Positions 4,726-60,791 of a stretch of 64,000 bases of DNA are shown in pieces. The notes under the pieces are model-generated. The model was not told where the DNA came from. It ran no database searches and was given only the letters and a program-made list of their open reading frames with translations. The position numbers and the translations under genes are program-made. Within the stretch, counting starts at the first letter, position 1. Each line of letters opens with the position of its first letter. This stretch comes from Saprospiraceae bacterium (lineage in GTDB: Bacteria > Bacteroidota > Bacteroidia > Chitinophagales > Saprospiraceae), in assembly GCA_965215115.1 (NCBI GenBank), contig OZ244050.1, forward strand, positions 2,062,323 through 2,126,322, read 5' to 3'.

Positions 4726-4800
4726 GGGGGGGGGCGGGGGGCGTTTTTGGCCTGAAGGCGTTCTTTTCTGGGGTGCTGTGCCGGGGTGCTGTGCCGGGGT

Positions 4801-5095
4801 GCTTTACTGGGGTCCCGGGGTCGTAAGCTGTGGTGTGGCTTGGTCTTTTGGTAAAATTAGGGCTGCTGATTTCCTTGTCGTATTTGGTTCGACCCCGGGC
4901 TACTCGTGGTTCGACCCCGCTGGGGTCGCGTGCTGGGGCTGTGCTGGGCTGCTTGACTGGGGTCCCGGGGTCGTAAGTTGTGGTGTGGCTTGGTCTTTTG
5001 GTAAAATTAGGGCTGCTGAGTTCCTTGTCGTATTTGGTTCGACCCCGGGCTACTCGTGGTTCGACCCCGCTGGGGTCGCGTGCTGGGCTCGATGG
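4801..5095. repeat. Two tandem copies of a 150-bp structured repeat (unit starts 4807 and 4957)
   Basis: Near-identical units share the core GGTTCGACCCCGGGCTACTCGTGGTTCGACCCCGCTGGGGTCG. 10-bp stem CCCGGGGTCG (4814-4823) / CGACCCCGGG (4890-4899). Mini-hairpin CGACCCC-GCT-GGGGTCG at 4912-4928. Confidence 0.9.
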
Positions 5096-5166
5096 TCCTT
5101 CGGCGGGCCGCGTAGGATGGCGCGCGCGTGCAGCAATCTATGCTCCTCGATCCATGCTCCACGTTC

Positions 5167-34561: not shown

Positions 34562-34569
34562 GAGCGAGG

Positions 34570-41802: not shown

Positions 41803-44800
41803 ATGAACATCTTCCACACCCACCGGCGCATCGTCGCCGAGTACAAGCGCTACCTCGAGAGCTTCATCCACGTGCAGGACGAACTCATCGCCGCGCACAT
41901 CCAGGAGGCACTCGACGCCGGGAAGCTCTTTCCCGATCCGCTGATTCAGTTCAATCCGAGCTTCGCGTACGGGCCTTCGCTCGCGGAACTCGTCGCGGAG
42001 GGGTTGCTCCACCGCACGCTCGACGACATCTTCCGGGGCTACAGCCTCTACCAGCACCAGGTGGACGCCCTGCGGCTCGGGACCAGTGGCCAGGATTTTA
42101 TCGTGACCTCGGGGACGGGCTCGGGCAAGTCGCTCACCTACATCGCAGCCATCTTCGATCGCATCCTGCGCGCGCACGACGACGGCAGCTACCGTAAGGG
42201 CGTCAAGGCGGTGATCGTGTACCCGATGAACGCGCTCATCAACTCGCAGACCGAGGAGTTTCGCAAGTACCAGCGCAACTACCTCGAGCCGTTGGCGCCC
42301 GCGTCGCTCGACCGCGAAGGGCTAGCCAAGCTTCCGCTCGACGAGCAGGTGGCCGAACTGGAACGGGCTACCGGCGCCACTTTCCCGATCTCCTTCGCGC
42401 AGTACACCGGCCAGGAAGGCGAGGCCGTGCGCGACCGCGTGAAGGCCGACCCGCCCGACATCATCCTCACCAACTACATGATGTTGGAGCTGATGATGAC
42501 GCGCCTGGCCGAGGCGCCGCTGCGAGACTCGTTCAGGGCGAGCTTGGACTTTCTGGTCTTCGACGAGCTCCACACGTACCGCGGGCGCCAGGGCTCCGAT
42601 GTGGCGATGCTTATCCGACGGATTCAAGCGTTTACCGGGCGGCCCACGCAGTGTATCGGTACCTCGGCGACGATGTCTTCCGGGGGCGATAGCCTCGACG
42701 CGCAGAAGGAGACGGTGGCCGAGGTCGGCCAGCTGATTTTCGGGAAGCCTTTCGGCAAAACGCAGGTCGTCAACGAAACTTTGACCCGCGTGACGGCTTA
42801 TCGCGACGTGGTGCCGAGTCGAGAAGAACTCTCACTCTCGCTCGACCCACAATCGATGATCGACGGGGATGAAACGCAACTCAGGAATCACCCCCTCGCG
42901 CTCTGGCTCGAAGCCGAGATTGGTTTGGAGCAGATCAGTCCCAAGTGGCTGCGGCGGCGTACGCCCGTTACGATGGAACACGTGTACGAGGTTTTGGCGG
43001 AAGCCGCCCGCGTCACGGCCGACGAAGCCGAGGCCGCTATTAAGGCCCTGCTTGCCTGGTCGGAGAAGATCAATGAGCAGCTTAAGTCGCGCGGCATCCG
43101 TCGCGCTTACTTCCCGTTCCGACTTCACCAATTCATCTCCCAGACGGGCGGAGTTTACGTGACGCTCGATCCGCCGGAGACGCGCAACATCACGCTCGAA
43201 GCGGGCTACTTCATCCAGGGCAAGAACGCTGATCGGCAACGACTTTATCAAATCGTGTTTAGCCGGGTAAGTGGGCATGAGTTTATCTGCGTCCGAAAGA
43301 AGATCAGCGATCGCCTACTTTACGCCCGCGACTTCAATGATTACACGGACGATCCGGAGGAGGAAGACCTGATTGCGGGTTATCTCATTCCCGACAATGA
43401 AGACGATCCGATCTGGAGAGACGAGTTCGCCGAGCAACTGCCCACCGCCTGGATCCGGCGCTACAAGGATGGCGTGACGCGGGTCATTCCGAAGTACCGC
43501 GCCCGTATCCCCAACGCGATTTACTACAACGCCGATGGGCGTTTTGGCGAAAGCCCCGATGGCATTCCCGACGCACAGTTCGGGTGGTTTATGCCTACCA
43601 AGCTGCTCTTCGATCCGACCTCCGGCGTCTTCTTCGACGCGAAGTCTTCCGAAGGCTCGAAGTTGATGCGGCTCGGAAATGAAGGTCGTAGTACGGCCAC
43701 GACGACACTTTCGCTCGCCGCCGTCGATGCGCTTCGACTCGGTGGCTTGCCGGACGGCGACCAGAAGCTGCTCAGCTTTACCGACAACAGGCAGGACGCC
43801 TCGCTGCAGGCCGGGCACTTCAATGATTTCGTGAGCATCGGGCGTATTCGTTCGGCTATTTACCACGCGCTGCGTTTTGCGCCGGACCACATGCTTGGCG
43901 TCGACCACATTGCCGCCGCCGTGGTGCGGGCCCTCGCGCTCGAACAGGAGGAGTACGCCCAGGTGCCGGCGCGTTTTGCGGGCAAGCGCGCAGAGAATGA
44001 GTCCGCCCTGCAGGATTACCTCACGATCCGCGTGCTACAAGACCTTAAGCGGGGTTGGCGCTACACGATGCCCAACCTCGAACAGTGCGGCCTGCTCGAC
44101 ATCGGCTACCGCTACATAGAGGCCGAGTTGGACACCGACATCTGGACGGAGCTGCCGCTGCCGATCGTGGCGCAGATGAGTGTCGACGAGCGGCGGACCT
44201 TCTTCACGCAGACGCTCGACTACATCCGCACCTCGAATGCGATCTACCACCGCTACTTCGTGGAAGACCAGGTGACGGTGGCGAACGCCATCAAGAACAA
44301 GCTCACCGGCGCCTGGACCCTCGGCGAGCAGGAGCGGCTGGAGTCGCCCAACTACATGCGCTACCAGAGTGTGGGGCGTGTCCGCAGAACGCATACCGCG
44401 AGTATGGGCAAGGCTAGTAATTGGGGGCGTTACGTTTCGCAAATTCACCAACACCAAACTGGTGAATCGCTCAGCCAGAAGGACTTCGAAGGTTTTGCCG
44501 AAAGGCTACTCGACCTGCTCAGCCAAATGGGACTGTTGCGCGCGAAAGCCATTCAGGGCGAGACCGGCGAAACGACCGCCTACATCCTCGACGCCAATGC
44601 CATAGAGTGGCGCCTGGGGAAGGGCGAAACGGTGCGGCCCGACCTCGTGCGCCGCCGCTCTTACCTCGGAGACGCCCCGACGCCCGCGCCGAATACCTAC
44701 TTCGAGGAGTTTTACCGTCGCGACTTCACCGTCCGTAAAGACCTCGTGGCCGCGGAACACACCGGGCAAGTCCAACACCAAGATCGGATTGATCGCGAAG

Positions 44801-47019: not shown

Positions 47020-49940
47020 TCGACGCCAGAGAGTTCAAGCCCGGCAAACTCGTCCGGCTCCGCCGCCGCGAGTGGATCGTGCAGCCGACCGAGGACCGGG
47101 ACGTGTTGCGCATCAAACCGCTCGGCGGCGCCGAGGAGGAGACGACCGGCATCTACCTGCCCTTTGCGTTCGAGAACGAGCGCATCGAGGAGTATTACTT
47201 TCCGCTACCCGAACGCGAGGACTTCGGTGATCTGGCCAGTGCCCGGCTGCTCTACGACGCCGTGCGCCTCGGCTTTCGCGACGCCTCGGGGCCTTTCCGC
47301 TCGATTGCCAAGTTCAACTTTCAACCACGGGCCTACCAGATGGTGCCGCTCATTTTGGCCTTGCGCCAGGAAGGACCGGTGCGGCTCTTCATCGCTGACG
47401 ATGTCGGGATCGGCAAGACGATCGAGAGCCTGATGGTGGCTCGGGAGATGCTCGACCGTGGGCTCGTCAAGCGCGTTGCAGTCGTTTGCCTGCCGCACCT
47501 CTGCGAGCAGTGGCAACAGGAGATGCGCGACAAGTTCGGTTTGGAGGCGGTGATCGTGCGCAGCTCCACGGCGGCTACGCTCGATCGCAAGACCCCCGGC
47601 GACATCAGTGCTTTTGCGCACTATCCCTTCCAGGTCGTGAGCATCGACTACGTCAAGACGGCGAAGCGGATCGACAGTTTTGTGGCGGATTGCCCGGGGC
47701 TAGTAATCGTGGACGAGGTGCACACGGCCTCGGCGAGCCCGGGGGCCGGTCGGCAGCAGCGGCACCATTTGCTGCGACAGCTGAGCGAGAAGCCGAACCA
47801 GAATCTTTTGCTGCTCTCGGCCACGCCCCACAGCGGCAAGCCGGAGGAGTTCCAATCGTTGCTCGGACTCCTGGCCCCGGGGTTTGCCTGCATCGAGATC
47901 GGTAAAGCGACCGACGCGGAGCGCCGCCGTTTGGCTGCCCACTACGTGCAGCGGCGGCGCAAGGATATCGAGCGTTGGGAGGGCGATAAGCTCAAGGAGA
48001 CGAAGCTTACTTTCCCGAAGCGCGATCCTAGAGAGGTGGCCTATCCTATGAGTCCGGAGTACCTACAGCTTCAGTACGACGTGATGCGGCTTGCGCAAAA
48101 ACTCGCGACCAAGGATGAGTCTAAGACGCAGCGTAAGCGGCTCAATTACTGGACGGCGCTGGGCTTGTTGCGTGGGGTGATGAGTAGTCCGGCGGCGGGG
48201 ATTACGATGCTGAATAATCGGGCGCGGAAGGTGGCCGAGGATGACGACGACGAGGGCGGCTATGAAAGTGCCGACGGTGATGGCGAACGTCAAGAATCAG
48301 ACGCCGCCACCCTACTCGCCGAGGCCAACGACAATCCCGTGATCGAAAACGATTTCGACTGGGGGCGCGACCTGGAGCCGGAACTCTACGAGACCGAAAC
48401 CGGCGAGAGCACTACGCTGCGCAAGCACCGCCACGAGTTGTCGAGCCAACTCCAGCACATTCACAAAGAAGGGCTCGACCTGAAGGTGAAGGCGCTCGTC
48501 ACGCTCGTGAAGCAATGGCACAAGGACGGCTTCTCGCCCATCGTCTACTGCCGCTACATCCGCACGGCCGAGTACGTGGGGCAGGTTTTGGCGAAAGCCT
48601 TCCCGAAAAAGGTGGGCATCGCGACCGTCACCAGCAAGGTGCCCGACGAGGAGCGACAGGCGGCCGTCGACAAACTCGGCGACCACGAGCTGCGCGTGCT
48701 GGTGGCCACCGATTGTATGAGCGAGGGCATCAACCTCCAGCGCTACTTCACGGCCATCATCCACTACGATCTGCCGTGGAACCCGAACCGCCTCGAACAG
48801 CGCGAGGGCCGCGTGGATCGCTTCGGCCAGACGGCCCCCGTCGTGCGCACGGCGCTGCTCTACGGCGAGGACAATCCCATGGACGGCATCGTGCTCAAGG
48901 TGCTGCTCCGTAAGGCGCGCGAGATCAAGCGGGCCATTGGGGTGAGCGTCCCGTTTCCGGAAAACAACCAGAGCATCATGGACGCCGTCACGCAGGCGGT
49001 GTTGCTGAAGGCGCCACCCTCGCCCGGCGGGATGCAACTCGGCATCTTCGACCAACTGGCCGAGGTCAACGAGAAGGCGGCCGAGGTGGAGATTGCCTAC
49101 AGACGCATCGAAGAGGTCGAGGTGGCCACGCGCAGCATCTTCGCGCAATACGCCGTCAAGGCCCAGGATATCGACCAAGACCTCGCCGACGCCATCCGCC
49201 TCATCGGCGACATGGACAGCGTCGAGCAGTTCGTGCTGCGCGCCGTGACGCACCTGGGCGGCAACTACAAGCCGCGCAAAGGCGGCTACCGCATCGAGCG
49301 GGAGGGTATGCCGGTGGGCGTCGATCACCTCTTCGGTGACGGCAAGAACCTCGACGTGAGTTTCGCGACGCCTACCCCAGAGGGCTTCCGCTACGTGGCG
49401 CGCAATCATCCGCTGGTGGACAGCCTCAGCCAGGTGCTTATGTCGGAAGCGATGGCGGAGGCCGATGGTGAGTTGCCGCTTTCGCAAAACCGCGTCCGCC
49501 GCACGGCCGTCGTCCGCACCGCCGCCGTGACGCGCACCACGACGCTGTTGCTGTTGCGCGTGCGCAATGTGATCGAGCGCACGGATATGAATCGCCAGCA
49601 GTTGGTAGCCGAGGAGCTGATGCTCAAAGGCTACCGCGGCACGCCGCCCGACCTGGAGTGGCTGCCCGAGGAGGAGAGCCTGGCCCTGCTCCAAACCGAG
49701 GCCAGCGCCGAGGTGGCCGCCGTCGAGAAGCGCGAGGCCATCGACGATGCACTCAATGATTACACGGCGCTCAAGGACGTGCTGAACGGGTTCGGGCGCG
49801 AGCAGGCCGAGCGCCTCGTCGAGGCCCACGATCGCTTCCGGGCCGCCGTCAAGGGGCCGCGCCGCTACCAGGTGGTCGAGCCCATCCTGCCCATGGACCT
49901 GATGGGCGTCTACGTCTTCATCCCCGATCGCACGCAGTAA
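47016..49940 (+). CDS. SNF2-family helicase (DrmD-like)
   Basis: 974 aa. Motifs ADDVGIGKTIE, VIVDEVHTAS, LLLSATPHSGK, QREGRVDRFGQ. ATGA overlap with the upstream gene. Confidence 0.85.
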   Translation: MIDAREFKPGKLVRLRRREWIVQPTEDRDVLRIKPLGGAEEETTGIYLPFAFENERIEEYYFPLPEREDFGDLASARLLYDAVRLGFRDASGPFRSIAKFNFQPRAYQMVPLILALRQEGPVRLFIADDVGIGKTIESLMVAREMLDRGLVKRVAVVCLPHLCEQWQQEMRDKFGLEAVIVRSSTAATLDRKTPGDISAFAHYPFQVVSIDYVKTAKRIDSFVADCPGLVIVDEVHTASASPGAGRQQRHHLLRQLSEKPNQNLLLLSATPHSGKPEEFQSLLGLLAPGFACIEIGKATDAERRRLAAHYVQRRRKDIERWEGDKLKETKLTFPKRDPREVAYPMSPEYLQLQYDVMRLAQKLATKDESKTQRKRLNYWTALGLLRGVMSSPAAGITMLNNRARKVAEDDDDEGGYESADGDGERQESDAATLLAEANDNPVIENDFDWGRDLEPELYETETGESTTLRKHRHELSSQLQHIHKEGLDLKVKALVTLVKQWHKDGFSPIVYCRYIRTAEYVGQVLAKAFPKKVGIATVTSKVPDEERQAAVDKLGDHELRVLVATDCMSEGINLQRYFTAIIHYDLPWNPNRLEQREGRVDRFGQTAPVVRTALLYGEDNPMDGIVLKVLLRKAREIKRAIGVSVPFPENNQSIMDAVTQAVLLKAPPSPGGMQLGIFDQLAEVNEKAAEVEIAYRRIEEVEVATRSIFAQYAVKAQDIDQDLADAIRLIGDMDSVEQFVLRAVTHLGGNYKPRKGGYRIEREGMPVGVDHLFGDGKNLDVSFATPTPEGFRYVARNHPLVDSLSQVLMSEAMAEADGELPLSQNRVRRTAVVRTAAVTRTTTLLLLRVRNVIERTDMNRQQLVAEELMLKGYRGTPPDLEWLPEEESLALLQTEASAEVAAVEKREAIDDALNDYTALKDVLNGFGREQAERLVEAHDRFRAAVKGPRRYQVVEPILPMDLMGVYVFIPDRTQ

Positions 49941-52900
49941 TGGCCACGAAGTTCCCGTCCGTCACCCTCCAGGGCAACATCCTCACCTTCGAGGCGCTCG
50001 AGAAGATCGCCGCCGGCAAAGACGATGGCGATATGCCGCGGCAGACGGCGCGCGAGTACGGTTTCGCGAGTGAGCAAGAGCTGCGCAGCGAGATTCAGGG
50101 GCAGTGGGCTGTCGCCAAAACCCAGTACACCGCTTTCCAGCAGCAGGTCGAGCGATTAAAGGATTCTGAGCCCGGTACCACCAAAACTCGGAGCGGTTGG
50201 ATGATACCGCTACTCAGTTTGTTGGGCCACGATCTGCGCTACCAGGCCAAGGCGCAAGAGATCGACGGGCGGGCGTACGCCATTAGCCACGTGGCTAGTG
50301 CGACCGCCGAAACAGGTTTTGGCGAAATCGAAGATTCGCGCAAGCAAAGCCGCAAAACCGACGCCCCGAGCACCAACTTCCCCGTGCACATCGTCGGCGC
50401 CAACCAAAGCCTCGACCGCCGGGGCGAGGGCATGCGCATGAGTCCGCACGCCCTGGTGCAGGAATTTCTCAATCGTCACGAGAGCCTCTACGCCATCGTC
50501 ACCAACGGCAAGTCGCTGCGCCTGCTGCGCGACAGCGCCAACCTCACCAAACTGAGCTACGTCGAGTTTGATTTGACGCGACTGTTCGGCGAGGACCTCT
50601 TCACCGACTTCGCGCTGCTCTATCGCCTGCTGCACATCAGTCGCCTGCCGGAGGAGCCGACTGCCGGGGCGGACAGTATCCTGGAGAAGTATCACCAGGA
50701 GGCGCTGAAGTCCGGGTCGCGCATCCGGAGCAAACTCAGTGAGGCCGTCGAGCGGGGCATCGTGATGCTGGCCAACGGGCTGCTCGCCAATGCGGACAAC
50801 CACGCCCTGCGGCAGTGGGCCGCCGAGCAGCCGGACGCGCCGGCCGCCTACTACGAGGCGCTGCTGAAGCTCATCTACCGCCTGCTGTTCGTGATGGTGA
50901 TCGAGGAGCGCGACCTCATCTTCCCACCGCCCGAGACCCGGGCAGACGATGGGCTAGACGGCCTGCGCGGCCCGCAGCCGATGGCCCACCGCGACGTGTA
51001 CTACCAGTTTTACTCGCTGAAGCGCCTGCGTGGCCTGGCCCTCAACCACCGCCTCGCCAACGCGCGCGAGTACGACCTGTGGGAGAGCTTGCGCAACACC
51101 TTCGCGCTGTTTGAGCCCGGGGGTACCGGCGCCAAACTCGGTATTGGCCCGCTGGCAGGGAGTCTGTTCGGGACGCAGGCGCTGAGCGCCTTGCAGGGCG
51201 GGCGCGTCAACAACCGCGTGCTGCTGGAGTGCCTACGGGGCCTTAGCCAGTTTGACAATGGCCAGGGCGGCGTGATGCCGGTCAACTACGCGAGTCTCGA
51301 CGTGGAGGAGTTCGGTTCGGTGTACGAGGGCCTGTTGGAGTACGCACCGCACATCGACCCGAAAACGCTGGAGTTCCGGTTTGTCAAGGGCCAGGACCGC
51401 AGCAGCAGCGGTAGCCACTACACGCCTGACGAGTTGGTGCAGCCGCTCATCAAACATAGTCTCGAGCACCTGATCGCGGATCGGACGGTGGCCCCGGATG
51501 CGGCCGAGCCTAAACGCGAGGCCGCGATTCAGCAACTGCTGCAACTCAAGGTGACCGACGTGACCTGCGGCAGCGGCCACATCTTGCTAGCGGCAGCGCG
51601 ACGCATCGGCCTGGAAGTCTCGCGCCTGCGCAGCCAGGAGGAGCAGCCCAATCCCATGGCCATTCGCGAGGGCACCCGCGACGCCATCCAGCGCTGCATC
51701 TACGGGGTCGACCGCAATCCGCTGGCCGTCGAACTTTGCAAGGTGGCGCTCTGGCTGGAGGCGCATGTCCCGGGCCGTCCGCTCGGCTTTCTCGACCACC
51801 GCATCAAGTGCGGCGACGCGATCGTGGGCGTGGGTCACCTCGAAGACTTGCAGAAGGGTATTCCGACGGAGGCTTTCAAAACGTTCACTTCAGAAGAGAA
51901 GTCACTTGGGGCAGCATTACGCAAGCGTAACCAGAAGGAGCGCAAGGACCGGGAAGCTCGGGTCGGGGGAGATTACCAGACGAATTTGTTAAGCGAGCAA
52001 TTTAGCGTCAAAGACCGTTTGGCCGCCTTTCGGCAAAACTTCGCCCGTTTTGCCGAGATGCCCGAGCGCACGGTGGCGGAGATTGAGGAGAAGGAGGCGG
52101 CGTACAGGAAGTTGAGCCAGGGCAGTAACTGGTGGTTTATCAAAACCCTGTGTGACGTGCAGATCGCGCAGTTTTTTATTCCGAAGACGGATGATAAGCG
52201 GGTGGTGACAGACAGTCGGTTTTTTGAGATGATGCGTGGGGCAAGGGATACGCAGGCGGAAGGTGCGGCGGTGTCGGAGAGCAGTGAGCGACGCTTTTTT
52301 CACTGGTTTTTGGAATTTCCGGAGGTGTTTGCGGGGGGGGGCTTTGATTGTGTGTTGGGGAATCCGCCTTTTTTGGGGGGGCTAAAAATTCCCGACAAAA
52401 TTGATGAAATTGCACACGAATACTTACAAAGTATGTTTCATGCATCTGGAAGAGCAGATTTAGTCTCCTACTTTTTTCGCAGGACATACACCCTTATCGG
52501 ATCTGCTGGTAAAATTAGTCTCTTAGCGACTAATACGATCTCCCAAGGTGACACTCGAATCGCAGGACTTCAGAGCATATTAAAGCTTGGTGGAGTAATT
52601 AACTTTGCCATACCCTCAATAGTATGGCCAGGAGCCGCAGAAGTAAGAGTTGCGAGCGTATCACTTTCAACTAAATCCGGCGCTTCAGCCAAGAAATATA
52701 TAGGTTCATCAGAAGTCACATTCATTAGCAGCTATCTTGATTCCGCGCCGGAGTTACATCCATACAAGATCAAAAGTAACAAAAATGAATCCTTTCAAGG
52801 TGACAACGTTGCAGGATTAGGGTTCTCTATTACCCGATCAGAGGTCAAAACTATGATTGAGTCGGATCCGAAAAATGAGCAGGTTTTATTTCCATACATC

Positions 52901-54526
52901 GACGGAGACACTCTCAACAAATCTCCAGAAATGGTGACTGAAAACTACATAATAAGCTTCGGAGAACGTACAGAATCCGATGCTATTTCGTTTAAAGAGC
53001 CGTATAGAAAGTTGATAAAAGATGTTTACCCGGAAAGACAAACAAAAAATGCGAAAAAGTATCCAAGAATGGTATATGAATGGTGGAAGTTCTGGAATTA
53101 TCGAAAAGAACTACACCGACAGCTCGATAATCTGGATGAAGTACTGTGTGTTGCGAGAGTGAGCAGAACACTAGCTTTTGCGGTGGTAAATGCTAAGCAA
53201 GTATTCCACGAGAAGCTTGTGGTGATGACTCGTTCGCTTGATGAAACATTTCCTGTATTACAATCAGACTTCCACAACTACTGGGCTTGGAAGTATTGTA
53301 CAACAATGAAAGATGATTTGACATATACTTCTAGCGCGATCTATCAGACATTTCCGTTTCCAGAAGCAAATTTGTTCAAACTTGTAGAATCTGGCTGCTT
53401 TTTTAGGTCTAAGAGACGCGAAGACCTATTGCTTCTAAGTTTAGGTCTGACAAAACTCTACAACCAATTCCACAACGCCCACCTCACCACCGATTACGAC
53501 ACCCTCTGGTCCGACGGCACCCTCACCATTGCCCCCGCCGAACTCAAAAAGCGCAAGCAGAGCAAGGAGACTTACAACCTCTACCGCCACCTCGACAAAA
53601 CGCCCGGTACGATCTCTATGGGCGAGGCCGTCGAGCGCATCGCCGAGTTGCGGCGCCTCCACAAGGAGATGGACCAGGCCGTGCTGGCGGCCTACGGCTG
53701 GGATAAACCCGGCAGGTACTGGGGTCCGGCCATCCGGCTGCGGCACGACTTCCACGAGGTGGACTACCTGCCCGACAACGATAATGTGCGCTACACCATC
53801 CACCCGGAGGCCCGGCGGGAGGTGCTCAAGCGGCTGCTGCTGCTCAATCACGAGATCCATGCGGCCGAGGTGCGGGGCGTGGAGTATGAGGTGGTGCGAG
53901 GAGAGAAGATCCGGCAGTTGATGCGCGAACAGGTGGAGGCGCTCTACCCCTATGTTGATCGCCTCCACGAGCGGACGGTCACCTTCCTCTCCTCGGCCGA
54001 GGAGTCTTTTGCCGGCGTGGAGCAGACCTTGGCGAAGAGCTACAAGGGCTACGTCTCCGAGCTGTCGAGTGCGTTGGAGAATGAGTTGGCCGAGCGGGTG
54101 TTCGTGGCTTTTGATGCGGAATTTCAGGGGCGGTACCGCAAGGAGGACGGGACGCGCGAGGCTTACCTAGACGCACAGGCGGCCATTGATCCGCAGAAAC
54201 TGGGTAAGTTTACGGGGCTGCTCAAGAAGCGCAGCACGAAATACGAGTTGGGGACGATGGAGTACTTGCTGTCGCTGGTGTATAAGGAGACCGGCTCGAC
54301 GCTGCGGTCGAGTGAGTTGCTACAGGACTTTCGGGCGTTTGTGCTGCGCGAAGTTGGGATTGGGGTTTTGGATCGGGGCTTTTTGGATGAGTTGAAGGGC
54401 TATGCTGCTAGGTATCGCAATGAGGCGGTGCATTTGGGGGAGGTGAGTAAGGTTGAGGCGGAGGCTTGTCGGGAGGTGGTGCTGGGGTTGTTGGGGGTGG
54501 TGGCTAATCAGCACTTGTCACGTTAG
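49940..54526 (+). CDS. Large N6-adenine DNA methyltransferase, Eco57I/type IIG-like architecture (DrmMI-like)
   Basis: 1528 aa. SAM motif VTDVTCGSGHILLAAA, catalytic GNPPF (52361-52372), C-terminal LRRLHKEMDQAVLAAYGW block. TAATG overlap with the SNF2 gene. Confidence 0.9.
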   Translation: MATKFPSVTLQGNILTFEALEKIAAGKDDGDMPRQTAREYGFASEQELRSEIQGQWAVAKTQYTAFQQQVERLKDSEPGTTKTRSGWMIPLLSLLGHDLRYQAKAQEIDGRAYAISHVASATAETGFGEIEDSRKQSRKTDAPSTNFPVHIVGANQSLDRRGEGMRMSPHALVQEFLNRHESLYAIVTNGKSLRLLRDSANLTKLSYVEFDLTRLFGEDLFTDFALLYRLLHISRLPEEPTAGADSILEKYHQEALKSGSRIRSKLSEAVERGIVMLANGLLANADNHALRQWAAEQPDAPAAYYEALLKLIYRLLFVMVIEERDLIFPPPETRADDGLDGLRGPQPMAHRDVYYQFYSLKRLRGLALNHRLANAREYDLWESLRNTFALFEPGGTGAKLGIGPLAGSLFGTQALSALQGGRVNNRVLLECLRGLSQFDNGQGGVMPVNYASLDVEEFGSVYEGLLEYAPHIDPKTLEFRFVKGQDRSSSGSHYTPDELVQPLIKHSLEHLIADRTVAPDAAEPKREAAIQQLLQLKVTDVTCGSGHILLAAARRIGLEVSRLRSQEEQPNPMAIREGTRDAIQRCIYGVDRNPLAVELCKVALWLEAHVPGRPLGFLDHRIKCGDAIVGVGHLEDLQKGIPTEAFKTFTSEEKSLGAALRKRNQKERKDREARVGGDYQTNLLSEQFSVKDRLAAFRQNFARFAEMPERTVAEIEEKEAAYRKLSQGSNWWFIKTLCDVQIAQFFIPKTDDKRVVTDSRFFEMMRGARDTQAEGAAVSESSERRFFHWFLEFPEVFAGGGFDCVLGNPPFLGGLKIPDKIDEIAHEYLQSMFHASGRADLVSYFFRRTYTLIGSAGKISLLATNTISQGDTRIAGLQSILKLGGVINFAIPSIVWPGAAEVRVASVSLSTKSGASAKKYIGSSEVTFISSYLDSAPELHPYKIKSNKNESFQGDNVAGLGFSITRSEVKTMIESDPKNEQVLFPYIDGDTLNKSPEMVTENYIISFGERTESDAISFKEPYRKLIKDVYPERQTKNAKKYPRMVYEWWKFWNYRKELHRQLDNLDEVLCVARVSRTLAFAVVNAKQVFHEKLVVMTRSLDETFPVLQSDFHNYWAWKYCTTMKDDLTYTSSAIYQTFPFPEANLFKLVESGCFFRSKRREDLLLLSLGLTKLYNQFHNAHLTTDYDTLWSDGTLTIAPAELKKRKQSKETYNLYRHLDKTPGTISMGEAVERIAELRRLHKEMDQAVLAAYGWDKPGRYWGPAIRLRHDFHEVDYLPDNDNVRYTIHPEARREVLKRLLLLNHEIHAAEVRGVEYEVVRGEKIRQLMREQVEALYPYVDRLHERTVTFLSSAEESFAGVEQTLAKSYKGYVSELSSALENELAERVFVAFDAEFQGRYRKEDGTREAYLDAQAAIDPQKLGKFTGLLKKRSTKYELGTMEYLLSLVYKETGSTLRSSELLQDFRAFVLREVGIGVLDRGFLDELKGYAARYRNEAVHLGEVSKVEAEACREVVLGLLGVVANQHLSR

Positions 54527-56153
54527 CATATCTCTTCCGGAGATCAGCCGACAATTTTTCTAATGATGCATCTTGACTAGAAAAGATTGGTTCAGAGGAT
54601 CGTGAGTTTGTTGGAAATGCAGACTTGTATGTGAGGGACGGTGCTTTGCGATATAGTTCACCTGCTGTAATTATGCGTAGTGGCGCAACGCTGTGCGAAT
54701 GATTGAACTTAGGCACTTGATACTCATCTCCTATAAGCTTCGTCCAAAGGTTATCAATAACACTGTGAGTGTGAAGCGACTCTAGCCATTCGCCCATGAC
54801 CACTAGACAGGGATAGATGATTAGCTTTTGCTTTGGCACAAGCAACCGCTTTGCTTTGTAAAGTACTGGTAGCCAGTCGATGCTTTTCTTCAGCTGCAGC
54901 AGTCCAACTGCTTCGTCAAATGGAACTTTATCGTTATCTTGCTTAAAAAGCTCATCAAAGGAAGTTCCGTACTCCTGGCTGTCTATCCAGCCAATTTGTT
55001 TTACTTGTCCAATGATGCACCTGTTCTGCTGATGGATGGTAAAATCTGCGAGTTCATCTCCTGAATTCGGGAGACTCTGCAAATCAGGCTTTCCTAAATA
55101 GGCGCGATTGAAGCGATTTGTTTTATTAATCAGATTAGCGAAGCAATCACCGACGAAAGCTTCAAGCTCATCGCCCTTGAATTTGCCTAGATCATCGGGC
55201 TGTACTCCCAAATTCTTTAACTTCGACCAGTAATATTGATCGATCAATCCAGACGAAAGATATTGAAACAAGCTAGGATAATCTGATATAACCTGCCCCG
55301 TTAAGTGCTCATTGACTTTCCCAGCGTCCACAACGGGCATCGATCTTATTAGACCTAAGCCCCGTACAGTGATAGCATTACTCTTAGCTCTAGCGATAAC
55401 TTCCTCGCAATCGAGACCCATCTTCAGATTAGAGTAAATATCTGTGTTCGAGAATGGATTTGGCCATTTTCTCGCATCAAAAGTGAATTTAAAATAATGG
55501 TTGTAAAACTCTTGCATGTTAGTGATGCTTGTTGTCGATGCTAGATAGTTCTCAATACCTAACGGGGTCCCCTTCTTTGCCTTACGCTCCAAGACGCCTA
55601 CGCGGTCTATCAAATGCTTTCCAAAAGCCAAATGGAAAGATTCATCTATTTTAGCATTATAAATATCAGATATAAGCCCTCTTATATTCAGACTTATTTC
55701 TGTTTGCCCAAGACTCGACGCGACAACATCGCTTTGATTTTGTATGCTAGTCTCGGCCTCAATAATGAGTGAGTAAATATCTACTTCAAATTGAATCGTT
55801 CTGTAAGACTCGTAAGTCTCTCGTTCAGGCAACCCGGATATGGCGTTAATATAGTTGCTGGCCGCTCTAATGCATCCACCACGAGACCATGGGAGATAGA
55901 CCGCGTTCATTTCTTCGCGCAGACGGTTCAAAGTCTCGGCTATTTCGGGGTATATGTTTGGAAATAGCTCGTTTAGCTTAGGATCATAAACACCTTCGCT
56001 GTAGTTGCCGTAGTTGATCATTGCGTGCACCCAGTTGCACGAAAATAGCCTCGCTAGTACTTCACGCGGGTCATACTCCCAGAGCAAATCAGATTGCACA
56101 AACTGAGGAAAATCTTTGGTGCTCGGCAGCCCCCGCAGTCGAATAGTCGTCAT
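54504..56153 (-). CDS. AT-rich hypothetical protein, candidate PD-(D/E)xK nuclease
   Basis: 549-aa ORF is the only long frame in the AT-rich block. Weak nuclease-like pattern GDELADFTIHQQNRCIIGQVKQ. Last gene of the minus-strand TcmP/DUF5131 operon. Confidence 0.5.
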   Translation of the reverse strand: MTTIRLRGLPSTKDFPQFVQSDLLWEYDPREVLARLFSCNWVHAMINYGNYSEGVYDPKLNELFPNIYPEIAETLNRLREEMNAVYLPWSRGGCIRAASNYINAISGLPERETYESYRTIQFEVDIYSLIIEAETSIQNQSDVVASSLGQTEISLNIRGLISDIYNAKIDESFHLAFGKHLIDRVGVLERKAKKGTPLGIENYLASTTSITNMQEFYNHYFKFTFDARKWPNPFSNTDIYSNLKMGLDCEEVIARAKSNAITVRGLGLIRSMPVVDAGKVNEHLTGQVISDYPSLFQYLSSGLIDQYYWSKLKNLGVQPDDLGKFKGDELEAFVGDCFANLINKTNRFNRAYLGKPDLQSLPNSGDELADFTIHQQNRCIIGQVKQIGWIDSQEYGTSFDELFKQDNDKVPFDEAVGLLQLKKSIDWLPVLYKAKRLLVPKQKLIIYPCLVVMGEWLESLHTHSVIDNLWTKLIGDEYQVPKFNHSHSVAPLRIITAGELYRKAPSLTYKSAFPTNSRSSEPIFSSQDASLEKLSADLRKRYANVTSAD

Positions 56154-56172
56154 TTTAGTATGCTTTATGTGG

Positions 56173-56937
56173 TCAAGCGCCTATTGAATCTCCAACAGAA
56201 GCTACGCCATGAGATATTGGCATCTCCCCCCACTCCCGTCCCGCCAATACCCGCCCGTTCGCCTTCTTCGAGCGCCGCTGGCCATCCTGTCCGTACGTAC
56301 CCCACTGCTTAAAGAAGAAAGCCACGTTTTGGCGCAAGCACTCATCCCGCACCCCCTCCGCCCAACCGGATGACATCGGCCTAGCCTTGACGCCGCTCTC
56401 CCCGCCGACGATGACCCAGTGGATGCCGTCGAGGTTTAGGTCTCCCAATCCCTCGAGCAGAGGCTCGCAGGAAAGGAAGCGGGTGCGGGCCGGTACCTCG
56501 CGGAGGGCCTCGATGCGGTGCAGCGTACGTCGGTCTTCGACGGAGGTCCCGAGCCAGGCGTTTTCAGGTACGACGCGAGTGGTGAAGTAGGCGACCATGC
56601 GTTCAGGTCGCTTGGTGAGGATTTGATACGTGTGACGAGGGGTATCCCGGATGGTGGCGAAGACGGCATCGAGGTGCTCTTCGGTCGCGCGCTCGTGGAA
56701 GAGGTCACTCATCGAGTTTACGAAATAGAGCGTGGGCTTGCGCACCTGGCGTGGGCCGTCGACTCGGCCGGCGTGCTCGCGGAAGGCGAAGCCGTCTTCG
56801 TAGCCGGGCGTCCCCATGGCCTGCAGACGCTTGGCCATGACAGCGGCGTAGCACTCGCGGCAGCCGGCGGAAAGTTTCGTACAGCCAGTTGATGGATTCC
56901 AGGTGGACTCGGTCCATTCGATGGCGGAGGTGCTCAT
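56173..56937 (-). CDS. DUF5131 (phage Gp37/Gp68 family) three-Cys protein
   Basis: 254 aa. N-terminus IEWTESTWNPSTGCTKLSAGCRECYA is the family signature, including the Cys triad. Confidence 0.85.
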   Translation of the reverse strand: MSTSAIEWTESTWNPSTGCTKLSAGCRECYAAVMAKRLQAMGTPGYEDGFAFREHAGRVDGPRQVRKPTLYFVNSMSDLFHERATEEHLDAVFATIRDTPRHTYQILTKRPERMVAYFTTRVVPENAWLGTSVEDRRTLHRIEALREVPARTRFLSCEPLLEGLGDLNLDGIHWVIVGGESGVKARPMSSGWAEGVRDECLRQNVAFFFKQWGTYGQDGQRRSKKANGRVLAGREWGEMPISHGVASVGDSIGA

Positions 56938-58037
56938 GGGGTGTAGGTGATGGTGACGAGGTCTTTTTCCTGGCCTAGGGCTGTTTCGTAGCGGGTCTTG
57001 GGGGATGTACCTGCGTAGGTAAGCTTCCTGGCTTTCTTGGCTGCTTGTAGGGCCTCGCGGCTGTGCGTTCCCGTGAAGCCACGGTTCTGGGTAAAGTGGA
57101 AGACCTCCTCATTCGTGACGGTACCGCGCTTCGCGATCCACTCCAGCAAGTCACGCTCGTATGTCTCGATCTTGCTCAGCTTCGGCAAACCGGTGAAGAT
57201 GTCGAACTGCCCGACGCCCCTCTGCTCCGGCAAAATGTAGTTTGCCTGCCCTGTTTCTTCATCCATACTCCAGGCCTGGCGAAGGAACTTGTCGGGGCCA
57301 CGTGGATGTTCAGAGGAGAAAATCACCCCGAAATAATTAGCTCCCCGCTTGAGTGCAAACGGAATGAACTGCCGACCTGGGCACACGAGTTCCTCGAAGC
57401 CTTTGGCTAGCGTTTGGTGCATGACCTGGACGGGCGCGTCAACGAGGACTGGGCCGACCTTCGGAAAGTGGCGCAGGATCGAGTCTTGAGTGATGAAGCG
57501 ACTGAGGGTGAAAGTACTGATGAAAAGGAGGAAATCTGTTTTGTAACGATGGCAAAGCCGATCTACGATCTGTTCGTTACCGAACTTGACCCCGTTTTGG
57601 TCGAGGATCTGGAGGGAGGGGGCCTTTGGCGGTAGCGTGTTGAGCACGTGCTCAAAACACTCGACGAAATCCATGTTGAGGACCTCCACGCTGCCGACCA
57701 TGTCCTTGTCCAGCTCTAGCCAGCCGTCAATAAACCGCTTCAGTTTCTTATGCTTCTCCGGCTTGAATTCGTTAAAAATTACGCGGACCTTCACGCTGCT
57801 GGTCGCTAGATTTTTCTTCTGCGAGCCGACTGCCTTCATGATTCTCTGGGGCGAACTGGGTACGCCGTTCGCATCGTAGCCGCCCGGGCCCGCAAAGTAG
57901 TCCACGATGTAGATCACGTCGTCCCTGTCGGCCTTCAGGAAGGTCGGCAGCCACGCTTCTGTGTACTTTTCGAAAAGTTGGAGCTTGGCCTGCGTGGTGG
58001 CGTCGTAGGGTTTGCCGTGGTGGTCCTTGACGGGCAT
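56934..58037 (-). CDS. tcmP: Three-Cys-motif partner protein TcmP
   Basis: 367 aa. TcmP-like N-terminus (HHGKPYDATTQAKLQLFEKYTEAWLPTF, IVDYFAGPGGY). ATGA overlap with the DUF5131 gene, the defining pairing. Confidence 0.75.
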   Translation of the reverse strand: MPVKDHHGKPYDATTQAKLQLFEKYTEAWLPTFLKADRDDVIYIVDYFAGPGGYDANGVPSSPQRIMKAVGSQKKNLATSSVKVRVIFNEFKPEKHKKLKRFIDGWLELDKDMVGSVEVLNMDFVECFEHVLNTLPPKAPSLQILDQNGVKFGNEQIVDRLCHRYKTDFLLFISTFTLSRFITQDSILRHFPKVGPVLVDAPVQVMHQTLAKGFEELVCPGRQFIPFALKRGANYFGVIFSSEHPRGPDKFLRQAWSMDEETGQANYILPEQRGVGQFDIFTGLPKLSKIETYERDLLEWIAKRGTVTNEEVFHFTQNRGFTGTHSREALQAAKKARKLTYAGTSPKTRYETALGQEKDLVTITYTP

Positions 58038-58095
58038 GGTCCGGTGTTTGAGGCAATACTACACAAATTGTTTGACAACGTGATACAGTTTAGGG

Positions 58096-58392
58096 TTGCG
58101 TCCTCCGATTTTTGCGCCGTTCTCTTGCGCGATGAGTCTGTTTTGGCGAAAGCTCACTCCAAAAACCAGCGGCACCGACAGATCGAGCGGCTTGCACCCA
58201 GGCAACGCAGTCCTCTACGTCTCGACGGGCGGCTTCAGCGGCGACGCCCGCCGCAAGGCAGATCGAGCGAACACCCCCAACACCCTTGTCGACCTCGACT
58301 GCCTCGCCGCGCTCTTGACGCAGTACTACGAGTCCTACGACGCCGACACCCGGACGCCGGCCCCAATGCGAAAGGTGTGGAGGCCGGTGTAG
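58096..58392 (+). pseudogene. C-terminal remnant of a restriction endonuclease (Mrr-type)
   Basis: Only the last ~65 codons look homologous (VLYVSTGGFSGDARRKA...LVDLDCLAALLTQYYESYD...RKVWRPV). There is no catalytic N-terminal part. Confidence 0.45.
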
Positions 58393-58417
58393 CATGTGGT
58401 CGCTACAATCAGCAAAA

Positions 58418-58846
58418 TCACCGTATCACCTTCGCCCTCCCACTAGCCGGCACTTCTATAAGCAGCGTCGAGGTCTGCTCCGCACTCTTTACGAGCAGCC
58501 GCACCTCGGGCCACGCACGGACCACCTGGACTACCGTGTCCCAGTACCGCGACTTCTTCGAAGGACGCTTAATAAATACCACGCCTACGCCGTGCTGGGC
58601 CAGTAAGGCAAACTGCTGTCGTCGGCGCTTGATGTTGACATCGTGCGTGAGGGCCATGGCCGACTGTAGTCCCAACTTGGGAATCCACTCCTCATCTAGA
58701 GCCCCGCGGCCAAATACATCGACGAGAGACTTCACCTGTAACTCGACACCGTCATCATCCTGCAGCCGGTCCTGCAGCACACTCAGTCCACGAATAAGGT
58801 TCGGTGACACGTTTTCATCCCCGTAGATAATCATGCGGCCATACAA
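58418..58846 (-). CDS. PIN-like domain protein (DUF5615 / VapC45-like toxin-type)
   Basis: 142 aa. IIYGDENVSPNLIRGL ... DEEWIPKLG...ALTHDVNIKRRRQQ pattern. Overlaps the upstream DUF433 gene by 16 nt. Confidence 0.6.
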   Translation of the reverse strand: MYGRMIIYGDENVSPNLIRGLSVLQDRLQDDDGVELQVKSLVDVFGRGALDEEWIPKLGLQSAMALTHDVNIKRRRQQFALLAQHGVGVVFIKRPSKKSRYWDTVVQVVRAWPEVRLLVKSAEQTSTLLIEVPASGRAKVIR

Positions 58847-59664
58847 AATTCGATTGCGTCTCGCACACGGCGCAGGGTCAAGTCATACTCCCTAGCGATC
58901 AACCTGATCGAGTCTCCGGCCTCGTGCATCCGGCACAGGACCTCCGCCTCGATGTTGGTGCCGACGATGACGGGTTGTCCGAAGCGGCGCTTAGGATTCA
59001 GTTCGATAGAGCCTTTGCCTGCACTCGGCTTGAAAGAACTCGCTGTGCCCTCGCTCGCGAACGACAGCTCCTGCACGAATTCACGGATCACCTCAAGGGC
59101 AAACTGGCGCTTGCCGTCGAGCGAGACTAAGCTCCCATTGATCTCCCAGTAGACACAGGCTCCGTCCGTCGCCATTTTGGACAGGATAGTCCGCTGCGCG
59201 AAAGGGTGACGCTGGCCCGTTAGCCGCTCCAGCTGCTCGGCCGCCTTGACGATCTTACGCGTGGTTACGCCAGCGGCGCGCAAGCGACTGAAGGTCTTGA
59301 GTTCGATGAGGGTGAGGAAGTCGATGGTGGGCTCGCCACCGAGCTGCCCGAAGCCATCCTGCTCAAAGTACCGCTGCGCCCACCCGCGCAGCCGCGTCAC
59401 CGGCTCGCCGAGGAGGCGTGCCGCGTCTGGGGGTGTGTAGGTGCCGGTGCCGAGTGCGAACATGGTGGCGCAAGGTACGCCTCTCGTGCCTATAGGTGCT
59501 CCCGGCAGCCCCACGGCCGTGGCCAGGTGCTGCGCGAAGACCGCCGGATCATCCACCGAGCGAACGGGCTTCCCGTGCGGGACGGTCGGCACCTCGCCGC
59601 CCTCGTACAGTCGATATTGGTTCACCCCAAAACCAAGGATATCGGACATCCCCCGCGCCGACAT
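58831..59664 (-). CDS. HTH plus DUF433 protein (antitoxin-type partner)
   Basis: 277 aa. XRE-like N-terminus (GMSARGMSDILGFGVNQYRLYEGGE), C-terminal DUF433 (RFGQPVIVGTNIEAEVLCRMHEAGDSIRLIAREYDL). The HTH appears to start upstream of the only ATG, so the gene may be 5'-truncated. Confidence 0.65.
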   Translation of the reverse strand: MSARGMSDILGFGVNQYRLYEGGEVPTVPHGKPVRSVDDPAVFAQHLATAVGLPGAPIGTRGVPCATMFALGTGTYTPPDAARLLGEPVTRLRGWAQRYFEQDGFGQLGGEPTIDFLTLIELKTFSRLRAAGVTTRKIVKAAEQLERLTGQRHPFAQRTILSKMATDGACVYWEINGSLVSLDGKRQFALEVIREFVQELSFASEGTASSFKPSAGKGSIELNPKRRFGQPVIVGTNIEAEVLCRMHEAGDSIRLIAREYDLTLRRVRDAIEFCMAA

Positions 59665-59865: not shown

Positions 59866-60609
59866 CTACATCAGCAATTGATAAATAGGCCACAGCCGCC
59901 CCATCTCCCCCGCCACCGTCTCCAAAATCCGATCCTCCCGCAAGCGCTCGTCGGACGGATCAAACGCCCGACTCACCATCGCGTACTTCCCCACCCGCAC
60001 CGTCCGCAAGGCCGCCTTGAGGTCGCCGACCGTCTCCATCTCGCTGAACTCGAAGGTATTCCCCTCGCCCGTCCACAGGTGGTACTCCCGCAGGCGCTGC
60101 ACCTCCGCCCACAGCGCCGCCAGCAGCTCCCGGTCCGCTTCCGTCGTCGGGCGCGCGGCGGCGCGTAGCTTCTCCTTCTCCCAAATCCCCGCCCCCGGCA
60201 TCCCGACCCGCAGCCAAATCCCGAGCCCGGAGCCCGTCACCGTCACCTGGATCCGCATCTGGTACACCGGACTCTCCTGGCCCTCCGGTACGCGACCGTC
60301 CAGCCGGTCCGTCTGCGCCTTGCTCCGGCCGTAGTGCAACCAGATCTCCTGGATCTTCGGCGAGTTGAAGTAACTGCCCTCCTCGCGGTGCGCTACCCTC
60401 GACGTTAAGTACGCGCGGTCGTAGTGCGGGTGCAGGTCCAGACCGCGCTCGGCGAGTTTTGGCGAAAGCCGTCCCTCCAGCTCGATGAGCCTGTCCTGGA
60501 CATCTTCCCTGGCGTGGCGCGCGGCGAGGGTCTGATCGCGGTGGCGAGCCGGCGCGAAGGCGGCGTAGTGGTCTTGCTTGAAGAAGTAGTCGGTGTCGTC
60601 GTGGCGCAT
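59866..60609 (-). CDS. Hypothetical protein
   Basis: 248 aa from the internal ATG (MRHDDTDYFFKQ). The longer ORF to 60765 would read through an intergenic inverted motif pair. Confidence 0.45.
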   Translation of the reverse strand: MRHDDTDYFFKQDHYAAFAPARHRDQTLAARHAREDVQDRLIELEGRLSPKLAERGLDLHPHYDRAYLTSRVAHREEGSYFNSPKIQEIWLHYGRSKAQTDRLDGRVPEGQESPVYQMRIQVTVTGSGLGIWLRVGMPGAGIWEKEKLRAAARPTTEADRELLAALWAEVQRLREYHLWTGEGNTFEFSEMETVGDLKAALRTVRVGKYAMVSRAFDPSDERLREDRILETVAGEMGRLWPIYQLLM

Positions 60610-60714
60610 GGGGCGGGGTAGTGGGTCGGAAGGTAAGCAGCGCTGTCGACGCCGCTGAAGTAAAATGCAGTCCCGCAAGCCTTGCCCCCTCACAGCTTCA
60701 TACTCGTATGTGAA

Positions 60715-60791
60715 GTTTTGGCGAAAGCCGAATTGCCTTGCTAAGGATGAGCATTTTGGGGACATTTATTTACAACGGCTTTCGCCAAAAC
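60715..60791. repeat. Inverted pair of the window-wide motif (16-nt perfect arms, 45-nt spacer)
   Basis: GTTTTGGCGAAAGCCG (60715-60730) / CGGCTTTCGCCAAAAC (60776-60791). Lies downstream of the AraC-family gene stop and upstream of the next minus-strand gene. Confidence 0.9.

Follow-up and report, generated by a model that had tools for sequence, protein, structure and literature searches.

A TcmP-DUF5131 gene pair and a replaceable cassette with a predicted PD-(D/E)xK nuclease on one strand of a Saprospiraceae genome

The locus and the borders of the cassette

Three genes follow one another on the minus strand of contig OZ244050.1 of Saprospiraceae bacterium (assembly GCA_965215115.1), within the 64,000-nucleotide stretch analysed here (the window, positions 2,062,323 to 2,126,322 of the contig; all coordinates below are those of the window unless another locus is named). 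The first two genes encode TcmP and a DUF5131 protein, and the third encodes a protein of 549 amino acids (aa). An initial annotation had taken the three together as a candidate modification-restriction-type system, in which a modifying pair is combined with a cargo nuclease. Our analysis points to a different organization: this strand probably carries two independent units, the TcmP-DUF5131 pair and a nuclease cassette. The genes and features concerned are the following open reading frames (ORFs) and motifs, where SAM stands for S-adenosylmethionine.

56934-58037, minus strand: TcmP (three-Cys-motif partner protein), 367 aa, from the ORF call
57879-57908, minus strand: glycine-rich stretch IVDYFAGPGG of TcmP, a candidate nucleotide or SAM-binding loop
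56173-56937, minus strand: DUF5131 protein (phage Gp37/Gp68 family, PF07505), 254 aa
56851-56883, minus strand: Cys triad CTKLSAGCREC of DUF5131 (C19-x6-C26-x2-C29), presumed [4Fe-4S] ligands
54504-56153, minus strand: third gene, 549 aa, with a helical N-terminus and a predicted C-terminal PD-(D/E)xK-type domain
54999-55163, minus strand: predicted catalytic core of the 549-aa protein, E331 ... E367-x-x-D370 ... Q383-x-K385
54504-56218, no strand: AT-rich variable cassette, 1715 nucleotides (nt), GC about 0.44, delimited by breakpoints against locus L165
49940-54526, plus strand: Eco57I/MmeI-family (DrmMI-like) DNA methyltransferase, 1528 aa, a neighbour outside the module

The ORF coordinates agree with the layout first described. 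All three ORFs lie on the minus strand, those of TcmP and DUF5131 overlap by 4 nt (ATGA), a gap of 19 nt separates the DUF5131 stop codon from the start of the third gene, and the third gene and the convergent 1528-aa methyltransferase ORF share 23 nt at their 3' ends. The motifs to which the initial annotation had drawn attention, the Cys triad, the FAGPGG stretch and a D...QxK stretch that reads ELADFTIHQQNRCIIGQVK in the translation of the 549-aa protein, are all found in the translations, and their key residues are conserved in homologue alignments to a degree far above chance. The jump in composition is likewise real, the GC content being 0.436 in the third gene, 0.626 in the DUF5131 gene, 0.558 in the TcmP gene and 0.625 in the window as a whole. 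The locus lies in a defence island, as had been proposed. Rfam has no match anywhere in the window.

The history of the third gene is revealed by comparison with locus L165, found via a DUF5131 that falls in the same 90% cluster as that of the window. The two loci are syntenic on both sides of the third gene, with 91% nucleotide identity across the 3' end of TcmP and DUF5131 on one side, and 88% and 84% across two parts of the methyltransferase gene on the other. Between these flanks, L165 carries 2.7 kilobases (kb) of unrelated ORFs and nothing that resembles the gene for the 549-aa protein. Homology ends between 54503 and 54504, right after the stop codon of the third gene, and again between 56218 and 56219, 15 codons before the stop codon of DUF5131. 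Breakpoints this sharp define the AT-rich block 54504-56218 as a discrete cassette, made up of the third gene, the 19-nt spacer, the final 15 codons of DUF5131 and the final 23 nt of the methyltransferase ORF. The 23-nt overlap of the convergent genes therefore exists because both flanking ORFs received their 3' ends from the cassette. A search for transposon-type insertion found no direct or inverted repeats flanking the cassette. The same flanks, different content and sharp breakpoints bear out the proposal that the third gene is exchangeable cargo, and support its being a horizontally acquired, replaceable cassette. The two closest homologs of the 549-aa protein have a GC content of 0.38 and reside in low-GC contigs, making a low-GC donor likely.

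The first gene in the L165 slot starts 236 nt after DUF5131 and shows a weak match (E = 0.004) to the metallo-beta-lactamase-type domain of ComEC; in ComEC this domain is a nuclease. At the junction of the slot, the 3' end of the L165 methyltransferase gene contains a 21-nt tandem duplication (L165:3540-3600), such that GLLGVVV appears twice, and the methyltransferase is broken into several ORFs. Duplication and split ORFs are probably due to errors, the "3x" in the contig name suggesting low coverage.

The TcmP-DUF5131 pair

Examination of 80 TcmP loci from different species, each with up to 8 kb of flank per side, shows that TcmP and DUF5131 form a conserved, self-contained two-gene module. 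A DUF5131 gene follows TcmP on the same strand in 79 of the 80 loci, and the remaining locus stops at a contig edge. The two genes are directly adjacent in 75 loci and overlap by 4 nt in 31. The 617-aa protein P0012, a JGI/ENA metagenome protein, is a natural fusion with TcmP at its N-terminus and DUF5131 at its C-terminus, and this fusion provides independent evidence that the two act together. The genomic association on which the initial annotation had relied is thus upheld. The pair also occurs partnerless, at a conserved chromosomal site across Chitinophagaceae.

Is the pair a previously undescribed system? Both window proteins match the component models of PADLOC system PDC-M30 from end to end, they are adjacent and they stand in A-then-B order; the pair is already in PADLOC-DB v2 as candidate PDC-M30/PDC-M41. 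The PDC entries of PADLOC are "guilt-by-embedding" predictions without experimental validation, and 32 of 100 Pseudomonas aeruginosa strains are reported to carry PDC-M30. We found no paper in the literature searched that assigns a function to the TcmP/DUF5131 pair.

TcmP scores 89.3 bits against NCBIfam TIGR04474 (cut-off 53) and matches PADLOC PDC-M30A at 6.2e-91. Its residues 286-344 match PF22560 (GMT-wHTH), giving it a C-terminal winged helix-turn-helix (HTH). An alignment of 58 sequences displays invariant columns at D46, F48, G50 and G53 (D-x-F-x-G-x-x-G), at N89 and at D146-Q-x-G149, with E90 and N148 nearly invariant. No Pfam methyltransferase family matches TcmP even at E <= 5, a PDB profile search gave no match, and hhalign comparisons with an HsdM-like alignment and with one C5-methyltransferase were negative.

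The DUF5131 protein is an unambiguous member of PF07505 (329 bits, 2e-98; gathering threshold 28.9). It matches PADLOC PDC-M30B at 2.2e-104, PDC-M41B as well, and phrog_2045 in PHROG at 5e-88; no PDB match was obtained by sequence or profile search. The cysteines C19, C26 and C29 and the motifs SMSD, LTKR and FFFKQWG do not vary in 60 DUF5131 sequences, while every position of SxEPL and GGESG is invariant or nearly so; we take the conserved GGESG to be like the GGE motif of radical SAM enzymes. RadicalSAM.org/SFLD lists DUF5131 as a radical SAM subgroup, Megacluster-5-2, so that the Cys cluster is, on this placement, a plausible radical-type cofactor site, as had been suggested. Its spacing, C-x6-C-x2-C, departs from the canonical C-x3-C-x2-C, and DUF5131 is accordingly classified as a radical-SAM-type enzyme of non-canonical kind. 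Against NCBIfam TIGR04471 (radical SAM mobile pair protein A) it reaches 84.5 bits where the cut-off is 355; judged by these scores, it is related to that equivalog, yet outside its membership.

A second radical SAM gene is found near the pair in some genomes. In eight Chitinophagaceae-type loci (L004 at 4239-5384, L040, L056, L065, L070, L071, L072 and L076) the gene directly upstream of TcmP encodes an approximately 380-aa protein that bears a canonical radical SAM motif (CEHGCIYC); the gene lies on the same strand and with gaps of -4 to +67 nt. By eye, this protein resembles SplB/"DNA repair photolyase"-type proteins. Its position could reflect shared locus ancestry or a functional link to the DUF5131 pair.

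DUF5131 homologs at about 50% identity are present in 156 phage records, whereas TcmP has no tblastn match in phage records and no PHROG match. That phage DUF5131 lacks TcmP was considered and rejected, since hhalign shows that neighbouring genes labelled "methyltransferase" by their depositors, a label that is annotation only, are distant TcmP homologs. In Gordonia phage Fairfaxidum, gp43 beside DUF5131 aligns to TcmP with a probability of 90.6% (E = 1.3e-6), and in Gordonia phage Angelique the corresponding gp43 does so with 89.4% (E = 2.1e-6) in an alignment of 309 columns that takes in the C-terminal winged helix. The phage pairs are located as follows.

32933-34874 of Gordonia phage Fairfaxidum (L166), convergent: TcmP-like/DUF5131 pair, identified by hhalign
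32816-34668 of Gordonia phage Angelique (L167), convergent: TcmP-like/DUF5131 pair, identified by hhalign

The genes of both phage pairs converge and overlap by 4-11 nt, and both pairs sit between the integrase/metalloprotease genes and the immunity repressor. Defence genes expressed from prophages usually lie in the region from integrase to repressor. The presence of a diverged TcmP beside DUF5131 in these phages indicates that the pairing is older and wider than sequence search reveals. Its extension to temperate Gordonia phages should be useful for finding the function of a widespread pair.

The 549-aa protein and its family

The 549-aa protein has no match in Pfam, NCBIfam, PADLOC or PHROG, and only two close homologs, at 38-39% identity, were found among 5.8 billion protein clusters. 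An exhaustive HMMER profile search recovers 97 clusters (50% identity) at E <= 1e-3, nearly all of them proteins of about 550 aa that align over residues ~280-500. A word-indexed search with the family alignment gave no proteins beyond the three already known, and a metagenome scan with the close-homolog alignment gave no match. Across 68 family sequences G327, D370 and K385 are invariant, E367 is kept in 67 and E331 in 65, while position 383 is occupied by Q in 36 sequences, by E in 31 and by D in one. At the sequence level, this E...D...(E/Q)xK pattern is the signature of PD-(D/E)xK nucleases.

AlphaFold2 modelling from the three close homologs alone gave an unusable model with a predicted local distance difference test (pLDDT) of 37.5, and the alignment of 68 sequences was needed for a model with pLDDT 86.9 and a predicted template modelling score (pTM) of 0.90. 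In this model, residues 1 to ~270 form a helical N-terminal domain, and the C-terminal part folds into an αβββαβ core composed of helix 319-337, strands 349-353, 371-375 and 378-385, helices 418-434 and strand 444-452. The conserved catalytic residues are located on helix 319-337 and on strands 371-375 and 378-385. The best Foldseek match, itself weak, is Upx (PDB 9wuf; E 5e-3, probability 0.97, TMq 0.30, 9% identity), and the small subunit of R.BspD6I is another weak match (E 0.048, probability 0.98). The PDB list consists mostly of PD-(D/E)xK enzymes, namely Upx, Can2, the R.BspD6I small subunit, Cdn1, Cfr10I, SgrAI, Bse634I, Hjc, McrC and Shedu, and among viral models the matches are to resolvases and restriction enzymes. 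The conserved D...(Q/E)xK site, the αβββαβ model and the PD-(D/E)xK enzymes among the Foldseek matches all speak for the earlier guess of a nuclease; as predicted from sequence and model, the 549-aa protein is very likely a nuclease of the PD-(D/E)xK type.

The initial annotation had further likened the site to that of Mrr, whose catalytic motif is D...QxK. The pattern is indeed present, but membership does not follow from it: neither the window protein nor any of its 68 relatives matches Mrr_cat (PF04471) in profile searches. Weak profile matches among the 68 relatives are confined to one to NERD at 0.007 and two to CARF_PDDEXK at 2e-4. On sequence grounds, assignment of the 549-aa protein to Mrr_cat, NERD or Upx is thus not supported.

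In which genomic contexts does this family reside? Retrieval with a 35-sequence main-clade alignment gave 75 main-clade loci, none of which contains TcmP, DUF5131 or an Eco57I-type methyltransferase, and no neighbour family is common to more than four of them. Both close homologs (loci L001 and L002) likewise have neither TcmP nor DUF5131 at their locus. No family member was found in 2.9 million viral contigs or in the plasmid collection, and no mobile-element partner (integrase, transposase) is conserved across the loci. One distant relative lies within a CTnDOT-like conjugative element (integrative and conjugative element), beside rteC, and another near a Fic gene. On long contigs the neighbours are often defence genes, including type I restriction-modification (R-M), TIR/SEFIR, DUF4365 and Dsr1-like genes; in most other genomes family members stand alone in variable islands. 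At L091:3952-10289 a relative is found near DUF4365, a caspase-like peptidase C14 and SEFIR/TIR, in an element with a D5-type primase, and at L002:6024-6395 the neighbour is a Dsr1-like SIR2 N-terminus.

One system or two, and the comparison with known systems

A question remains to be asked of the third gene: does it belong to the pair that precedes it? Neither the 549-aa protein nor its family profile matches anything in the 80 TcmP loci, and the pair is equally absent from the 75 main-clade loci of the nuclease family and from those of both close homologs. Nor did the census of pair neighbourhoods disclose another conserved third partner. Among 72 genes that follow DUF5131, 30 run in the same direction within 100 nt, 19 do so at a greater distance and 23 are convergent; by BLASTP, 62 of the 72 are singletons. 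When the 35 closest of the co-directional neighbours are assigned to Pfam families, aconitase, racemase, peptidases, an ABC transporter and Mur ligase appear alongside HNH, GIY-YIG, RAMA, SNF2 and Uma2; many of the downstream genes are housekeeping ones. The claim that the three genes make up one system is therefore not sustained. Given that the family is missing from TcmP loci, that the position after DUF5131 is variable, that the family is solitary, and that L165 has the pair with other content behind it, the third gene is best regarded as separate from the pair, and we consider it probable that two independent units, the TcmP-DUF5131 pair and the nuclease cassette, happen to share one strand.

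Several observations weigh against this account. All Foldseek matches of the 549-aa protein are weak, none reaching E <= 1e-3 and all with TM-scores <= 0.3. The 19-nt gap holds no terminator-like site, so that co-transcription and functional coupling are possible in this genome; a scan for sigma-70 promoters and terminators stayed at background level, with a model unsuited to a Bacteroidota-type genome. In L003, a Saprospiraceae metagenome-assembled genome that is the next-closest TcmP locus (73% nucleotide identity), a pseudogene remnant of the nuclease family, 48-56 residues long and with an in-frame stop, lies downstream of TcmP-DUF5131 (L003:11004-11147) and preserves some 50 codons from the start of the gene, which makes nuclease and pair neighbours in more than one genome. 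As L003 shares the same inherited block, the remnant is not an independent association. Finally, in the loci of the two close homologs the nuclease gene follows, in the same direction and after 2 nt and 24 nt, a gene for a large Eco57I-family, type-IIG-like methyltransferase. Together with the window copy, which abuts a methyltransferase gene too, this suggests a methyltransferase partner rather than a solitary enzyme.

According to this first alternative, the nuclease would be the cleavage partner of an Eco57I-family methyltransferase in an R-M-like arrangement, and would serve the adjacent DISARM-like enzyme here, at the position that the nuclease DrmC often occupies in DISARM systems. The gene order of the close homologs is kept at high divergence, the C-terminal tails of the two upstream methyltransferases (L001 and L002) being 44% identical; the methyltransferase whose 3' end the window copy touches is of the Eco57I/MmeI family; and a DrmC-type protein was not found in the operon of the window. 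Yet the two genes are convergent in the window, and the methyltransferase there is a distant relative of the L001 and L002 enzymes, with 25% identity to them across part of the sequence. This nuclease is missing from L165, where the same helicase/methyltransferase system is present, none of the 75 main-clade loci has an Eco57I-type methyltransferase in its vicinity, and the L003 remnant stands beside the pair with no such methyltransferase within 6 kb. The association comes from two loci, which probably represent one ancestral event. We consider a methyltransferase partnership unlikely.

The second alternative retains the three genes as a modification-restriction-type system, in which TcmP/DUF5131 would write a radical-SAM mark and swappable slot nucleases would read it. 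It draws on the same-strand position of the third gene with its 19-nt gap, on the exchangeable slot seen in L165, and on the remnant of the 549-aa family retained after the pair in L003. If the ComEC-like domain of L165 (E = 0.004) is a nuclease, two slot alleles would have a candidate nuclease as their first gene; elsewhere, HNH, GIY-YIG or Uma2 domains are found in a minority of the genes in third position, and the phage TcmP homologs are annotated as methyltransferases. Conversely, the 549-aa family and the pair are mutually absent from each other's loci, roughly one in three of the genes downstream is convergent and many have housekeeping functions, and the pair exists both partnerless at the Chitinophagaceae site and as a fusion. 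The first slot gene of L165 is 236 nt past DUF5131, and a methyltransferase fold was not found for TcmP by Pfam, PDB profile search or hhalign. A three-part system is, in our judgement, decidedly unlikely.

It is very unlikely that the 549-aa protein has a nuclease fold with a non-defence role (mobile-element maintenance, recombination or repair) or is an inactive passenger: distant relatives by rteC in a CTnDOT-like element and near a Fic gene, the lack of a PADLOC model match and the decay of the L003 copy would fit such a role, but the strict conservation of catalytic residues in 68 diverged sequences argues for an active enzyme, defence genes are frequent neighbours on long contigs, and no integrase or transposase partner is conserved.

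We thus return to two independent units, and the following scheme may be proposed for them. The C-terminal winged helix of TcmP would position DUF5131 on nucleic acid, and TcmP might supply a second SAM site. DUF5131 would bind an Fe-S cluster via C-x6-C-x2-C and, with SAM, run a radical reaction on DNA or RNA that leads to modification or damage. The AT-rich 1.7-kb cassette, likely from a low-GC donor, occupies a replaceable slot between the operon of the pair and the converging DISARM-like methyltransferase gene. The 549-aa protein that it encodes would act in defence as a single-protein, metal-dependent DNA endonuclease, with the helical N-terminal domain sensing or selecting its targets. 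As the nuclease gene begins only 19 nt past DUF5131, transcription reading through from the TcmP operon probably drives its expression in this genome. Shared transcription would then follow from the landing place of the cassette and would not point to a shared mechanism.

A bolder proposal would join the units again. TcmP/DUF5131 may mark nucleic acid by radical SAM chemistry, and the downstream slot may be a landing site for interchangeable nuclease effectors that spare or require the mark. We regard this as a long shot. If it were true, the slot would hold a PD-(D/E)xK protein here and a ComEC-like metallo-beta-lactamase-fold protein in L165, restriction-modification logic would be built on radical chemistry with plug-in effectors, and in the versions borne by actinophage prophages this system would serve superinfection exclusion.

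The genes around the module complete the picture of the island. The following lie upstream of TcmP.

58418-58846, minus strand: PIN_10 protein, upstream of TcmP (Pfam PIN_10 3.4e-14)
58831-59664, minus strand: DUF433/HTH protein, upstream of TcmP (Pfam DUF433 3e-13)
59866-60765, minus strand: ORF travelling with the TcmP/DUF5131 block, phmmer match to L003

The DUF433/HTH gene is followed by the PIN_10 gene with a 16-nt overlap, on the same strand as TcmP, and from their domains alone we take the two to be a toxin-antitoxin pair; they are present in none of 80 other TcmP loci. A 380-nt spacer (58038-58417) separates the PIN gene from TcmP. Within it, ORF 58096-58392 on the plus strand was considered by eye as a restriction-enzyme C-terminus and rejected, as it has no similarity to the Mrr-type gene of the window or to PDB chains. 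The ORF at 59866-60765 has a homolog at L003:9970-10704 (phmmer 5e-96, blastn identity 70%). It stands directly after DUF5131 in L003, and in the window it stands upstream of TcmP, beyond the PIN/DUF433 pair. It has no Pfam, PADLOC, PHROG or PDB match and is absent from the other 79 TcmP loci. The TcmP reading frame of L003 (L003:8001-9107) is split into two ORFs by a stop; the L003 block appears to be decaying, or else to contain assembly errors.

On the other side of the cassette, the methyltransferase at 49940-54526 matches Pfam Eco57I, MmeI_Mtase and MmeI_TRD, and PADLOC DrmMI at 1.5e-205. Its gene closes a helicase-helicase-methyltransferase operon (41803-54526, plus strand) that converges on the cassette. 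The first gene of this operon (1738 aa) has its best match to Druantia DruE models, and the second (974 aa) has a better match to DpdE than to DrmD; searches of the operon showed no DUF1998/DrmB or DrmC component. This atypical "DISARM-like" operon may be of hybrid origin, or it may represent a helicase-helicase-methyltransferase arrangement not described before. The methyltransferase itself is a mosaic. An AT-rich segment (52391-53472, GC 0.42) covers catalytic motif IV together with the MmeI-type target-recognition domain, and is only 45% identical to L165 at the protein level, while its flanks show 84-88% nucleotide identity; from its sequence it looks like a swap of the specificity-determining segment. 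The idea that this segment and the nuclease were co-acquired from an L002-like operon was rejected, as the segment has no likeness to the L002 methyltransferase beyond motif IV and the orientation is wrong.

What do these findings imply? Current concepts are left unchanged. The locus nevertheless provides a cassette replacement resolved to the base pair, between two converging defence operons, in which the insert supplies both flanking 3' ends. It also illustrates that tight, operon-like spacing can arise without functional coupling.

Among known systems, PDC-M30 is the closest to the pair. It is a two-gene candidate, both of whose components are matched by the window pair, and the gene for the 549-aa protein is outside it. 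Canonical radical SAM enzymes differ from DUF5131 in the spacing of their cysteines. Spore photoproduct lyase is likewise a radical SAM enzyme and has megacluster 5 in common with DUF5131; this lyase and gp53 of phage M6 are precedents for radical SAM chemistry on DNA.

For the nuclease, DISARM and type IIG R-M systems come to mind, as the cassette abuts a DrmMI-like methyltransferase gene and the close homologs follow type-IIG-like methyltransferases. Unlike a DISARM component, however, the 549-aa protein has no PADLOC Drm match, its gene is convergent to the operon, and it is absent from the operon of L165. DrmC is a PLD-family nuclease, whereas the fold predicted for the 549-aa protein is PD-(D/E)xK. 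Mrr and other type IV restriction endonucleases share with it the D...(Q/E)xK site and the order of a non-catalytic N-terminal domain followed by a C-terminal nuclease; the family described here differs in lacking an Mrr_cat match and in having an N-terminal domain without recognisable relative. The best structural match, Upx, is a validated single-protein PD-(D/E)xK anti-phage nuclease (PMC13099982). It resembles the 549-aa protein in being stand-alone and in having a C-terminal PD-(D/E)xK core supported by other domains, but it is 1212 aa long with two nuclease domains, and no PADLOC model, including that of Upx, matches the window protein. With its conserved site, large N-terminal domain and solitary occurrence, the 549-aa family is a plausible candidate for a new defence nuclease encoded by a single gene. 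It is rare and uncatalogued, yet of a familiar kind, that of single-gene PD-(D/E)xK nucleases in defence islands.

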